A stretch of DNA of 64,000 bases from Oligoflexia bacterium. Its GTDB lineage: Bacteria; Bdellovibrionota; UBA1018. The DNA is taken from assembly GCA_014378465.1 (NCBI GenBank), contig JACMNQ010000065.1, forward strand, positions 5,186-69,185, written 5' to 3'. The translations under genes were made by a program, and so were the position numbers. The notes beneath the pieces are model-generated. The model saw nothing but the letters and a program-made list of their open reading frames with translations. It did not search any database and had not been told where the DNA came from. Positions within the stretch are counted from its first letter, which is position 1. Every line of letters starts with the position of its first letter. Positions 42,086 to 45,694 of the stretch are shown here, one piece after another.

Positions 42086-42270
42086 TGTCGAAAGCTGAAG
42101 TAAAGGCCTGGTTGGGTCAGTGGATCACCGGCGTTGCCCTCGTTTTTGCCTTGATCAGTGGATTGACGATCCTGGCTGGAACAGCTCATCCGGTCGGTTC
42201 TTATCCCATGGTGGGTAAAGTGACTCAGACTCCCGAAAATCAAGAGGTCCGAATTCATGCAAACCGTTAA
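42086..42270 (+). CDS. possible small single-TM membrane protein
   Basis: MSKAEVKAWLGQWITGVALVFALISGLTILAG... 61 aa. Its end overlaps the start of the next gene by 14 nt. Weak RBS. Confidence 0.25.
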
Positions 42271-44419
42271 TGGAATCACCGAAAGCACGCAGTTGAGGAA
42301 AGTGGGAACTCCGATCCCTGAAATTCCCGCGGGCTTCATTCCATCCTTCTCTTCTCCCCACCTGGAAAAAAATGGGGTGGACAAGATACCAGCGGTCCTG
42401 ATCGGCAGCCAGGCCATCGTCAGCAGCATTGTGGACGAACGGCTTCCGCTTGAGGCCTTCTTTCAGCTTGCCGGGACGCTGGCCGGCTATTCTTTCGTCA
42501 AAGTGGTCGTGGACCGCGATGAATCCAAGATTCATTTCATCAATCATTCCCGCTATGAATTTCATTCGGACTACATCGCGGAGAACATCCTGGGCAAGAC
42601 CGCGGCAGAAGTGGATGCGGACATCGAAGTTTTCAATGAGAGCGTCTACCTGAGCATGAGTCGCAGGTTCTATCTCGGAATTCTCGCGCTTCACAAGCCG
42701 ATTGAAAAAGGCCAGGAACGCCGTTTTTTTTCCCTGGAGACCGTTGAGATCGACACCATGGATTCGGAGATGCTCAAGTTCTTCTACGGCCGCGTGAAGG
42801 AATTCACGGATCCAAGTCTGCCGCTGTACTTCAAGCCGGCGAACCACAATCAGGAAAAAATCATCGCCGGCATAGATTCGGTTGAGCTCCCTCGAATCTT
42901 CTCGCATGAGCTTTTCGCGAGCTCTCGTTTCATCGCGCTCAATTCAGGTGTGGCCCAGGGTCGTCTGAGAGCATTCAAGACCGAACTTGAATACCGCCGC
43001 GCTCTGCCGACGATCGAGTGGCATGACATCATCGTCATGCACCGGGTGCCTGACGATATCCCGCGTATTTCAGGCATCATCAACGCTCATCATACCACTC
43101 CGCTCTCCCACACGAATGTCCTGGCGACGGGCTGGAACATTCCGAACGCGATTCAGCTCGGGATCTTTGATCAGATTGCCAAAGAAGGACTTGCGGACCA
43201 ATGGGTGAGTTACGGCGTCGACCTGAGCGCACAGTCCGTGAGCCTCACTCCGATCGAAAAGCCCGCTGAAGTGAATCAGCGTCCTGCCTGGATCATGCAG
43301 CAGGTGAAGCTCGAAGAGCCGGAGACCATCAATACTCCGATTCTCGAACTTGATCGTCTGCGCATGAGCGATCGTTATCGGTACGGCACCAAGGCCGCGA
43401 ATCTCGGCGAACTTCGCCATGTCCTCGAAAACGGTTCCGAACGACTGCTCGGATTCTACAAGGTCAATCGGCCTCCGCGCAAGAATCTCATGCCCCACCT
43501 CGCGAAGTTTCTCGGAGTGGACGAAGCGGGCAACCTCACTCGCGCCGCCTGGCAGTTTTTGCGCAACAAAGTCGAGATTCCGCGCGGGATCGCGATTCCG
43601 TTCTCCGTTCAACAGGAGTTTCTGGAATCTTCGCCCCGCATTCAGCAGGCCATCGGCAAGCTCAAGATGGCGCAGGAGCTCAACGCCCGCGAGACGGACT
43701 CTCTCTGCCTCATGGTTCAGCAGCTCATCCGCACCACGCGCATGCCTGAGCGCGTCCGCAGTTACATCGACGCTCAGATTGCCAATCACCTGAGCGGCGT
43801 TTCGAGTTTCGTGGTTCGAAGTTCCTCAAATGCCGAGGACCTTGAGAACTTCTCGGCGGCCGGAATCTACGAGTCGATCAATCATGTGACGACGGCCGAG
43901 AACATCTTTCAGAGCATCAAGGAGGTCTGGGCTTCGCTCCTTTCTCCTCGCAGCGTGCGCCTCCGCCATCAGGTCGGGATCTCGCTTGATGACTGTTACA
44001 TGGGAGTCATCGTTCAGGAAGAAGTGAAGGCTGAAATGGGCGGCGTGCTCGTCACGACCAATCCCACCAACCGCGCTGATTTCAGAAACGTGTACATCAA
44101 CGTGTCCGCGAATTCCTCAAAGACTTCGCAGGCTCCGGGGGCCAAGAGTGGCGTCAACAGCATCGTGGATGGTTCGGAACTTCCGCATCAGCTTCTCTTC
44201 AACACGGTTGAAGGGGGCGGGCGCACGCTCACGATCGGCGACAACTCTCAGGAACTGAACGAAGCTCAGAAAGCCATGCTCCAGGATCTGGCCTTCGCCG
44301 GTCGACTCCTGCAGTCCCACTTTTCCCCGGATTACACGTTCAGCGCTCCCGTCGACATCGAATGGGTGGCAGGCAAGGATGGCATTTCCATCCTGCAGCT
44401 GCGCCCCTACTCGAAGTGA
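42257..44419 (+). CDS. PEP-utilizing enzyme family protein with permuted domain order (unknown N-domain, phosphohistidine swivel domain, PPDK_N ATP-grasp)
   Basis: Swivel-domain motif HHTTPLSHTNVLATGWNIPNAIQLG (compare GG.TSHAAI.AR..G.P.VVG). C-terminal nucleotide-binding domain with RYGTKAANLGEL, VVRSSSNAEDLENFSAAGIYES and VIVQEEVKAEMGGVLVTTNP. Confidence 0.7.
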   Translation: MQTVNGITESTQLRKVGTPIPEIPAGFIPSFSSPHLEKNGVDKIPAVLIGSQAIVSSIVDERLPLEAFFQLAGTLAGYSFVKVVVDRDESKIHFINHSRYEFHSDYIAENILGKTAAEVDADIEVFNESVYLSMSRRFYLGILALHKPIEKGQERRFFSLETVEIDTMDSEMLKFFYGRVKEFTDPSLPLYFKPANHNQEKIIAGIDSVELPRIFSHELFASSRFIALNSGVAQGRLRAFKTELEYRRALPTIEWHDIIVMHRVPDDIPRISGIINAHHTTPLSHTNVLATGWNIPNAIQLGIFDQIAKEGLADQWVSYGVDLSAQSVSLTPIEKPAEVNQRPAWIMQQVKLEEPETINTPILELDRLRMSDRYRYGTKAANLGELRHVLENGSERLLGFYKVNRPPRKNLMPHLAKFLGVDEAGNLTRAAWQFLRNKVEIPRGIAIPFSVQQEFLESSPRIQQAIGKLKMAQELNARETDSLCLMVQQLIRTTRMPERVRSYIDAQIANHLSGVSSFVVRSSSNAEDLENFSAAGIYESINHVTTAENIFQSIKEVWASLLSPRSVRLRHQVGISLDDCYMGVIVQEEVKAEMGGVLVTTNPTNRADFRNVYINVSANSSKTSQAPGAKSGVNSIVDGSELPHQLLFNTVEGGGRTLTIGDNSQELNEAQKAMLQDLAFAGRLLQSHFSPDYTFSAPVDIEWVAGKDGISILQLRPYSK

Positions 44420-44440
44420 GTGCCCGGTGAAAACGCAATC

Positions 44441-45694
44441 ATGAAATCCGGAGTCGCGCGCATCACTCGTCTTTACTACGGGTTTCAGTTCTTCTTCTCC
44501 CTGCTCCTCTGGACCCCGGTCTTCTTCGAGTATCAGAAGCAGATGGGGCTCAGTGACTCGCAGATCTTCTCGATTCAGAGCATCTACTACATCGCTTTCT
44601 GTTTTCTAGAGATCCCGACCGGCTTCGTGGCGGATCGTTTTGGACACCGCAACTGCATGAAGCTCGGCGCAGTGCTTTTGGTGCTGTCCAATGTCCTGCC
44701 GGTCGTGTCGTCGACCTATATCGCTTTTCTCGCACATTTTCTTCTGATCGCCCTTTCTCGTTCTCTGATTTCCGGCGCCTCGAGTGCCTACATCTATGAT
44801 CGTCTGAAGGAAGCGGGGGAGTCCGTCGTCTACAAACAGGTCGAAGGCAACGCTCGCTCCTATGGCCTCATCGGGAAAATCGTGGGTTGGGCGGCGATGG
44901 GTCCCCTGATGAAATGGTACCTGCCGATGCCCTACCTTCTCACGGCGTTGAGCGCACTGATCAGTGTGGGGTTTGCCTGGGCACTGCCTGCTGCTTCCGT
45001 GGGCAAGGGCGGAGCCGGCGAAGCGACTCGCACGGCCAAAGACCTCAAATGGTCGGGAGTCTTCACCGCCTTGAAGTCCGCTCCGGATCTCCTGTTCATC
45101 ATGGTTCAGGGAGTGGGTCTGTTCGTCCTCGCGCGAATCGTTCAGATCAATCTCTTTCAGCCCATCCTGCGGGACAAGGGCTATGATCTGGCTTCCTTTG
45201 GGTGGGTCATGTCCGTGATCAGCATTTTCGAAGCGGTCGGTTCGGCCCGTCCGCAGTGGATTCGAAAATTCTGTGATGATCTGACCGCGGTCTACGTTCT
45301 GACGCTGCTCATGGCCCTCAGTCTGGCCGTGATCCCGGTTGCCGGGCAGTGGGGCACTCTCGTGCAGCTCAGTCTCTTCTCACTCGTCACGGGCTTCTCA
45401 TTTCCGATTCAGCGGCAGCTCCTGAACGACGCGATCACGGTTCAAGGCGGCACGCATTACCGCGCGACCCTTCTGTCGGTGGAGTCGATTGTCGACCGCG
45501 CAGTGTGCGCCGGGGTCGCTTATGTGCTCGGCGGGTTTGCAAGCGGCGAAAAACTTCACCAGTTTCTCAATTGGAGTGCGGGTCTGACGGCGGCGATGAT
45601 GGTGTTGCTTTATGGCTCGCAACTGGCGTTCAAGAGATTGCGCCCGGTGTCCGAGGTCATTCCTGATTCACGGATCATTCAGCAGGAAACTTGA
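44441..45694 (+). CDS. MFS transporter
   Basis: Twelve predicted TM segments and an MFS loop motif (GFVADRFGHRN). ATG 21 nt after the preceding stop; the track's GTG start at 44420 is also possible. Confidence 0.75.
   Translation: MKSGVARITRLYYGFQFFFSLLLWTPVFFEYQKQMGLSDSQIFSIQSIYYIAFCFLEIPTGFVADRFGHRNCMKLGAVLLVLSNVLPVVSSTYIAFLAHFLLIALSRSLISGASSAYIYDRLKEAGESVVYKQVEGNARSYGLIGKIVGWAAMGPLMKWYLPMPYLLTALSALISVGFAWALPAASVGKGGAGEATRTAKDLKWSGVFTALKSAPDLLFIMVQGVGLFVLARIVQINLFQPILRDKGYDLASFGWVMSVISIFEAVGSARPQWIRKFCDDLTAVYVLTLLMALSLAVIPVAGQWGTLVQLSLFSLVTGFSFPIQRQLLNDAITVQGGTHYRATLLSVESIVDRAVCAGVAYVLGGFASGEKLHQFLNWSAGLTAAMMVLLYGSQLAFKRLRPVSEVIPDSRIIQQET

Follow-up and report, generated by a model that had tools for sequence, protein, structure and literature searches.

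A probable histidine-swivel dikinase with GWD-type domain order, encoded in a conserved pair with an MFS transporter

A 64,000-nucleotide stretch of DNA from an Oligoflexia bacterium (contig JACMNQ010000065.1; hereafter, the window) encodes a 720-aa protein at 42257..44419 on the + strand, delimited by its open reading frame (ORF) and translation, with the stop codon at 44417-44419. It is followed by the gene of a transporter of the major facilitator superfamily (MFS). The two genes form a module that is both real and conserved. We are highly confident that the 720-aa protein has dikinase chemistry and the domain architecture of the plant starch dikinase GWD, and we consider it probable that it forms a dedicated functional pair with the MFS protein, acting on a small molecule. 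The explanation that we prefer for the whole, a dikinase in GWD order with an MFS partner, leaning to uptake and trapping of the substrate, is put forward tentatively. A first-pass annotation of this DNA had quoted a swivel motif, LSHTNVLATGWNIPNAIQLG, located N-terminal to a PPDK_N-type ATP-grasp domain. This peptide is present in the translated product of the 720-aa ORF, and translation, Pfam and the structural model agree with the order proposed for the two domains.

Pfam searches placed PPDK_N (PF01326) at residues 437-719 of the dikinase, with 115.9 bits against a cut-off of 27. It was the only family matched at E<=1, with no PEP-utilizers_C, CBM or other family. Since the motif GTKAANLGEL, at residues 377-386, is one of the first elements of PPDK_N, the nucleotide-binding ATP-grasp domain spans about residues 361-720 (43337..44416, +), including an insertion of ~47 aa (388-436). 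Sequence and structure searches agree with this assignment. The best sequence match in the PDB is the ATP-binding domain of rifampin phosphotransferase (RPH; 5hv6, phmmer, E 3e-18), the DIEW...LQxRP motif included, and the Foldseek structural matches are RPH, PpsA, HpeI and PPDK. The NCBIfam models of PpsA, RPH, PigC and RedH all match the ATP-grasp stretch only, with 34-111 bits against cut-offs of 501-1700.

The remainder of the protein was delimited with AlphaFold2. When the whole protein was modelled from an alignment of 32 sequences, the mean predicted local distance difference test (pLDDT) score was 77, while residues 53-345 modelled alone reached 89. The N-terminal tail (residues 1-52; 42257..42412, +) is unconserved and predicted to be disordered (pLDDT ~30), and homologues align to the window protein only from about residue 45-57. 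No signal peptide was found in the dikinase, its N-terminal hydropathy being under the signal-peptide-like level. The tail is followed by a putative acceptor-binding domain of alpha/beta fold (residues 55-226; 42419..42934, +; pLDDT 80-96), whose conserved polar residues in the 63-sequence alignment described below are His103, which is invariant, and Tyr131, Arg136, Glu161 and Asp166, conserved in at least 90% of the sequences. This domain has no Pfam family. Against the PDB, its best Foldseek match had an E of 0.026 and a profile hidden Markov model found no relative, the presence of the GWD central domain (9HA9) in the searched PDB copy being unchecked. Residues 227-342 (42935..43282, +) are predicted to form a phosphohistidine swivel domain with a conserved catalytic His. 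The predicted phospho-carrier, His285 (codon at 43109..43111, +, coordinates checked), lies in the invariant motif TTPLSHTNVLAxGW and, in the AlphaFold2 model, at the start of helix 285-292. It is invariant in the 32 orthologues and in a 21-sequence alignment of the His domain, and conserved in at least 90% of the 63-sequence alignment. The N-terminal domain of ~260 aa without assigned family that had been announced at first does lack a family, although its extent has to be redrawn as ~52 disordered residues and a domain of ~170 aa, with the swivel domain beginning at about residue 227.

The order of acceptor domain, His domain and ATP-grasp is the GWD order and not a new permutation. Potato GWD1 is composed of CBM45_1, CBM45_2, an all-alpha central domain (483-926), a His domain (931-1050, with His992) and an ATP-binding domain (1069-1387), an order that, in the words of a 2026 structural study, "differs dramatically" from that of PPDK and RPH (PMC13553574). 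The last three segments compare with residues 55-226, 227-342 and 361-720 of the window protein, and GWD1 and PWD alike have an acceptor-side domain, a phosphohistidine domain and a C-terminal PPDK_N-type ATP domain in succession (PMC13553574). Further likenesses to GWD are the catalytic His at the start of a short helix and an ATP domain more similar to its counterpart in RPH than to the one in PPDK. The reversal noticed in the first-pass annotation is real, then, but it is already that of plant GWD. There are also clear differences. The window protein has neither CBM45 nor CBM20, is half the size of GWD and PWD, bacterial and paired with a transporter, and its acceptor domain is a 170-aa alpha/beta fold, whereas the central domain of GWD is all-alpha and 440 aa long.

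A wider family emerged when residues 1-365 were searched against 1.84 billion representative proteins, which returned 707 clusters; the window protein and 62 of those matches make up the 63-member alignment. Clusters at ~20-30% identity contain proteins of 620-860 aa that have the N-domain, the His domain and PPDK_N in common. PPDK_N is matched by 63 out of 63 members and PEP-utilizers by seven, while 24 give weak matches to GWD1_pHisD (PF22973; best E 7.9e-5, all under the 27-bit cut-off as far as shown). The window protein itself has no GWD1_pHisD match at E<=1. The wider-family consensus, TPLSHVNxLA.NRGTPN, appears to resemble the GWD motif around the catalytic His. The family is most aptly regarded as related to the GWD-type dikinases, but bacterial and equipped with an acceptor domain that is different and compact. 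Signal-peptide-like or lipoprotein-like N-termini were found in 54 of the 63 members and in none of the window's subfamily. This suggests a substrate outside the cytoplasm, and a transporter would be the only means by which a cytoplasmic subfamily could get access to it.

The GWD-type domain order, the similarity of the His domain and the secreted or lipid-anchored appearance of most wider-family relatives could also be read as signs of a GWD-like phosphorylation of a polymer or of the cell envelope, the MFS protein being the flippase or exporter of the phosphorylated lipid or glycan. MFS flippases do stand beside cytoplasmic lipid-modifying enzymes, as with LtaA and LplT. We regard this explanation as very unlikely, given that Pfam searches (E<=1) revealed neither a carbohydrate-binding module nor an element for membrane binding, that the N-domain is small (170 aa) and unlike the all-alpha GWD central domain, and that there are no conserved glycan or lipid genes nearby.

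The ~47-aa insertion in the N-lobe of the ATP-grasp (43418..43564, +) is specific to the subfamily, as judged from alignment lengths and invariant residues. Within the 63-member alignment, the segment at query residues 385-442 is long (58-101 aa) in four sequences, namely the window protein and the three relatives nearest to it. Three others, including P0151, have long but different inserts of 59-140 aa, and all 56 that remain have a short segment of 10-24 aa. The insertion contains the near-invariant motif GSxRxxGFY...RPPR, with G393, S394, R396, G399, F400, Y401, R405, P407 and R408 invariant, and we may speculate that it is a docking surface. Other traits of the wider family are worth recording. 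Its apparently exported ATP-grasp dikinases (mostly ~20-30%-identical relatives, among P0151-P0270) are puzzling, since no ATP would be expected beyond the cytoplasm. Two members are giant proteins, P0171 (3227 aa) and P0197 (2025 aa); inspected by eye, P0171 has two complete dikinase modules amid many Ig-like or fibronectin-like-looking repeats, behind a signal peptide. In a single case (L088:7001-11888), a distant relative bearing a signal peptide (P0162) is followed by a 255-aa protein without assigned function and two genes of the CstA family, whose proteins are peptide or pyruvate transporters.

Linkage of the dikinase to an MFS gene, one of the claims of the first-pass annotation, was checked by tblastn: an MFS gene lies directly downstream in 78 out of 82 loci. 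The paired loci belong to Bdellovibrionota, Actinomycetota and Elusimicrobiota and include four of the eight loci of the Eremiobacterota clade, and the four loci that lack the MFS gene constitute one Eremiobacterota-like clade. The gap between the two genes is mostly between -61 and +26 nt, for ORF calls that take the longest possible start. An MFS gene is also next in a 49%-identical Streptomyces branch. The pairing apparently holds in a 43%-identical branch as well (P0125), where a downstream ORF overlapping the stop codon of the dikinase begins in an MFS-like way and is cut off by the contig end after 40 codons. All-against-all clustering of the flanking ORFs showed the MFS gene to be the only widely conserved neighbour, and no further conserved partner was found in the contexts of Elusimicrobiota, Eremiobacterota and other loci. 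In the window, the MFS protein has 417 aa when counted from its ATG (44441..45694, +; MFS_1 at 60.3 bits, together with junction sequence, gene call and family alignment). This ATG at 44441, 21 nt past the dikinase TGA, is favoured by gene callers; an alternative GTG start is located at 44420.

The NCBIfam matches of the MFS protein are weak and mixed, comprising TetA(P), FloR, MdfA, PgtP, NarK, ArsK, DgoT-like and SfMCT, all far under their cut-offs (18-26 bits against 439-750 for TetA(P), FloR and MdfA). In the PDB, phmmer found nothing, and the family profile gave only generic matches to transmembrane helices (TM) 2-4, with E >= 0.012. DHA-type drug:H+ antiporters carry antiporter motif C, G-x-x-x-G-P-x-x-G-G, in TM5. 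At this position, Gly-Pro occurs in three out of 29 family members, and Gly-Gly never follows. An identity as a DHA-type drug:H+ antiporter was rejected, since MFS_1 is matched (60.3 bits) but neither motif C nor family-level scores were found. The invariant charged residues of the MFS family include Arg107, Arg232 and Arg341, and such charges would suit an anionic substrate. Thus, as regards the phosphotransferase plus efflux module proposed at first, the conserved pair stands, and efflux has no specific support: motif C is missing and the efflux models score under their cut-offs.

The homologues of the dikinase number more than 1,100, the best 120 being 61-72% identical, and relatives were present in 357 out of 185,579 GTDB species when one genome per species was scanned. 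The best 80 loci, 58-68% identical to the window protein, are hosted mostly by Bdellovibrionota, and also by Actinomycetota, Elusimicrobiota and Eremiobacterota; the actinomycete genera are Amycolatopsis, Kutzneria, Lentzea, Umezawaea, Actinoplanes, Couchioplanes and Longispora. A neighbour-joining tree was star-like, with the actinomycete, Elusimicrobiota and Eremiobacterota sequences in one clade each. One clade per phylum points to a family history of a few old transfers followed by vertical descent, and not to recent mobility. Among 72,556 plasmid records, full-length matches were confined to three large linear Streptomyces replicons, which belong to the 49%-identical branch; the plasmids thus give no pointer to a mobile resistance cassette.

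These data bear on the suggestion that the genes form a resistance pair, the dikinase inactivating an antibiotic or toxin by phosphorylation, like RPH, and the MFS protein pumping out the drug or the product. RPH is a small-molecule dikinase with a His-swivel mechanism and the closest solved relative of the ATP-grasp, the weak matches of the MFS protein are mostly to drug-efflux families, and the patchy distribution of the family includes antibiotic-producing actinomycetes. The RPH order, however, is ATP-grasp, rifampin-binding domain, His domain, and, the swivel domain aside, no significant match to RPH was found with the N-terminal part of the window protein. RPH identity was rejected on this domain order, on the score of the RPH equivalog model NF041857 (100.7 bits against a cut-off of 999, from the ATP-grasp only) and on the acceptor domain, which is unrelated to the rifampin-binding one. 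The 58-72% identity across phyla, with clades that follow phyla, the restriction of full-length plasmid matches to the three Streptomyces replicons and the absence of motif C likewise speak against a resistance function. A secreted hydrolase, of the kind found beside some pairs (see below), would undo the inactivation by removing the phosphate outside the cell. The inactivation of an antibiotic or toxin, as the first-pass annotation had it, found no specific support, neighbouring genes not being resistance genes, and we judge it improbable.

PpsA and PPDK share with the window protein an ATP-grasp, a swivel His domain and three-site phosphotransfer. Their order is ATP-grasp, His domain and a phosphoenolpyruvate (PEP)/pyruvate TIM barrel, whereas the window protein has the reverse order, lacks the TIM barrel and ends with the ATP-grasp. 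Both differences, from PEP synthase/PPDK and from RPH, had been anticipated, as had the lack of the barrel, with which the absence of PEP-utilizers_C at E<=1 and the 170-aa alpha/beta fold of the N-domain agree. A canonical order or a TIM-barrel N-terminus was looked for by Pfam and structure prediction and was not seen. The NCBIfam PpsA equivalogs score 85-111 bits on the window protein, against cut-offs of 598-976.

Some neighbours of the pair recur within single lineages. In the window, a membrane H+-pyrophosphatase gene, a possible accessory partner, lies 2 kb downstream (47646..49721, +; H_PPase at 793.7 bits). Membrane pyrophosphatases of two non-orthologous types, ~30% identical to each other, are encoded 0.1-4.7 kb downstream of the MFS gene in 12 other Bdellovibrionota loci, in six of them directly adjacent and on the same strand (pyrophosphatase loci include L003:5857-8352 and L011:9282-11777). 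This adjacency might reflect pyrophosphate release by the dikinase, with which two types of adjacent enzyme would fit, or plain synteny. In 15 Pseudonocardiaceae loci (Amycolatopsis, Kutzneria, Lentzea, Umezawaea), edd-eda lies directly upstream on the same strand, as identified with TIGR01196 at 970 bits and eda models (e.g. L079:3251-5742, L048:3076-5765).

Such neighbours are what a non-canonical PEP synthase or PPDK might be expected to have, one in which the N-domain would be a non-homologous pyruvate/PEP site, the MFS protein would import pyruvate or another monocarboxylate and the membrane pyrophosphatase would remove pyrophosphate. Database names say PEP synthase, an aconitase gene is present in the window, the product of edd-eda is pyruvate, membrane pyrophosphatases are adjacent, a distant relative adjoins CstA-family genes, and the conserved Arg, Glu, Asp and His are compatible with a Mg-carboxylate site. 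Each of these context clues, however, comes from a single lineage or a single case. The lack of PEP-utilizers_C, PpsA scores far under all cut-offs, the presence of the family in only 357 out of 185,579 GTDB species and the generic nature of the MFS likeness to a lactate transporter (TM2-4 only, E 0.012) further make this explanation a poor one, to which we give little credence.

A HAD-fold protein with a signal peptide adjoins the pair, on either side, in 13 out of 82 loci of Bdellovibrionota, Elusimicrobiota and Actinomycetota, and not in the window (loci include L007:5347-5982, L075:9222-9791 and L028:9214-9774). Its motif I is FDLGxT, with the nucleophile Asp present and the Asp+2 general acid replaced by Gly. 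In two Streptomyces linear replicons (L084:7583-12410, L085:7589-12269), genes for a BacD-like L-amino-acid ligase, the dikinase and the MFS protein form an apparent operon, preceded by a divergent PAS-LuxR regulator, and this set looks like a small biosynthetic cluster. A BacD-like ligase is fused to the dikinase in P0130 (1113 aa). In the four MFS-less loci, an 803-aa protein combining a BesA/PGM1-like ATP-grasp peptide ligase and WD40 repeats is conserved downstream on the opposite strand (L036:11531-13942 (-) and counterparts in L037, L038 and L067).

The Streptomyces operon, the P0130 fusion and the BesA-like ATP-grasp-WD40 gene suggest a different role, biosynthesis coupled to export. 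The dikinase would make a high-energy phospho-metabolite, e.g. an N-phospho- or O-phospho-amino acid or dipeptide serving as antimetabolite or pro-toxin, the MFS protein would export it and the HAD-fold hydrolase, where present, would unmask the product outside the cell; even without the general acid, this protein could still cleave an activated phosphate. There are precedents. Cj1418, annotated as a PEP synthase, is in fact an L-glutamine kinase (PMC10971088), and the PPDK-like PhtL, postulated to form the N-P bond of phaseolotoxin, is encoded in a cluster with two L-amino-acid ligases and the HAD hydrolase PhtP (PMC3927611, PMC11278893); accessory genes of these kinds are also seen around the window family. 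Cj1418 and PhtL, compared here by description, are PPDK/PpsA-like proteins with known or postulated formation of P-N bonds on amino acids, and were at first mis-annotated as PEP synthase; they differ in belonging to large biosynthetic clusters and not to a two-gene module. Most loci, the window included, have no other biosynthetic, ligase or immunity gene, the ligase association is restricted to one actinomycete branch and the MFS protein has no motif C. We therefore hold biosynthesis and export to be unlikely, though not negligible.

In the reading that we prefer, ATP would bind the C-terminal ATP-grasp and its beta-phosphate would pass to His285. The His domain would then swing to the N-terminal alpha/beta domain (residues 55-226) and hand the phosphate to an acceptor bound at the site of His103, Tyr131, Arg136, Glu161 and Asp166, with release of AMP and phosphate (or pyrophosphate). 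These steps are inferred by analogy with PPDK, RPH and GWD. The enzyme would be cytoplasmic and an obligate partner of the downstream, probably co-translated, MFS protein, which would carry the same small, polar and probably anionic metabolite across the membrane. Amino acids and their derivatives, sugar acids and 2-oxo acids are the candidate classes of acceptor. We lean to a scavenging and trapping role, in which the substrate would be taken up and then phosphorylated irreversibly, rather than to one in which it would be phosphorylated and then exported. The absence of motif C can be taken to argue for uptake, as can the signal-peptide-like N-termini of most wider-family members, the secreted HAD-fold partner, present in 13 loci from at least three phyla, and the position of the pair directly behind edd-eda, which resembles a kinase plus permease in a catabolic operon. 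Two-gene modules of kinase and permease are typically catabolic. Among known dikinases, the phenolic ones (HpeHI, CreHI and the phenylphosphate synthase PpsAB) are also small-molecule enzymes with an RPH-like ATP-grasp (HpeI, 9goj, Foldseek 8e-13), although theirs are split in two proteins with an RPH-like acceptor domain and belong to catabolic aromatic pathways without a dedicated MFS. A scavenging role has been proposed for small-molecule dikinases whose Km is sub-micromolar, and for HpeHI-type enzymes in particular one in high-affinity scavenging and trapping (PMC12167813).

Several observations weigh against this reading. The window protein is below every Pfam threshold for a swivel domain, and a profile of its His domain found no swivel domain among PDB sequences, so that the swivel assignment rests on predicted structure. 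The N-domain is only putatively acceptor-binding, as suggested by where it lies and by its conserved residues. As to the direction of transport, the best weak matches of the MFS protein are to the efflux families TetA(P), FloR and MdfA, and the BacD-like ligases, upstream in Streptomyces and fused in P0130, suggest biosynthesis and export. The HAD-fold protein, having no Asp+2 general acid, may not be a phosphatase. Synteny alone could explain the edd-eda, pyrophosphatase and ligase links, none of which extends beyond a single lineage. Moreover, ordinary one-ATP kinases normally suffice to trap a nutrient. Literature searches found no paper on a dikinase-MFS pairing or on this family, and no characterized member. 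Uptake as such is a leaning that we hold with considerable doubt.

A more daring version of uptake would make the pair an ATP-driven counterpart of the phosphotransferase system (PTS), with the dikinase docked on the MFS permease and phosphorylating each substrate molecule on its exit from the transporter, a vectorial phosphorylation or MFS-based group translocation. The docking might involve the near-invariant GSxRxxGFY...RPPR insertion. PTS Enzyme I differs in using PEP and not ATP, in lacking an ATP-grasp and in relaying its phosphate through HPr and EII to a permease that is not of the MFS. We think vectorial phosphorylation a long shot. If true, it would account for the inseparability of the two genes, which holds to at least 49% identity and apparently to 43%, for the use of a costly dikinase and for the transporter that always goes with the cytoplasmic subfamily, in contrast to its relatives, most of which look secreted.

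The window has an even G+C content (53-58%). The genes around the pair encode an aconitase (upstream, divergent), a 285-aa protein without assigned function, endonuclease I, the membrane H+-pyrophosphatase and a hybrid histidine kinase. A weak sigma-70-like promoter match (41998..42027, +; 9/12 matches) lies upstream of the pair; the scan found one site against 2.1 expected by chance, which is no evidence of function, and promoter and terminator scans were at chance level. No riboswitch or leader was found by Rfam at E<=1 over 41500-42500, and the 530-nt region upstream of the dikinase has no DNA in common with the other 80-odd loci. In this region, a small ORF (41977-42270, +) ends with a stop codon that overlaps the dikinase start (ATGcaaaccgtTAA). 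Its ~61-aa product from 42086-42270 has one hydrophobic segment when read by eye, and it is conserved in none of the other loci compared. No dikinase paralogue was found elsewhere in the window, and no PADLOC defence-system model was matched by the dikinase or the MFS protein. Further upstream, a B12-binding radical SAM protein of 665 aa is encoded at 34072-36069 (+), followed on the opposite strand by three ORFs without Pfam family (36539-38796). The dikinase is identical to a 720-aa product on public record (P0001), likewise called as 720 aa, from a metagenome-assembled genome and named "phosphoenolpyruvate synthase". The organism labels of this record conflict, being Methylotenera sp. in one source and Oligoflexia in another. 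The former looks like a binning error, because all close relatives are from Bdellovibrionota/Oligoflexia.

Overall, the protein is, with little doubt on our part as to chemistry and architecture, an ATP-driven His-swivel kinase with the GWD order and a new, compact acceptor domain. The database label "phosphoenolpyruvate synthase" or "PEP/pyruvate-binding protein" is probably wrong, and the PEP synthase label distorts metabolic reconstructions. It concerns several hundred bacterial species, including most sampled Bdellovibrionota, which are predatory bacteria, and several antibiotic-producing actinomycete genera. The arrangement of acceptor domain, His domain and ATP-grasp, so far known from plant starch dikinases, is thus widespread in bacteria. 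The strictly conserved dikinase-transporter pair offers a clean two-gene system in which to look for a phosphorylated metabolite not seen before. The outcome might be a nutrient that is scavenged, an antimetabolite or an instance of phosphorylation coupled to transport. Genetic work is feasible, because some hosts (Amycolatopsis, Kutzneria, Lentzea and Streptomyces among them) can be cultured.

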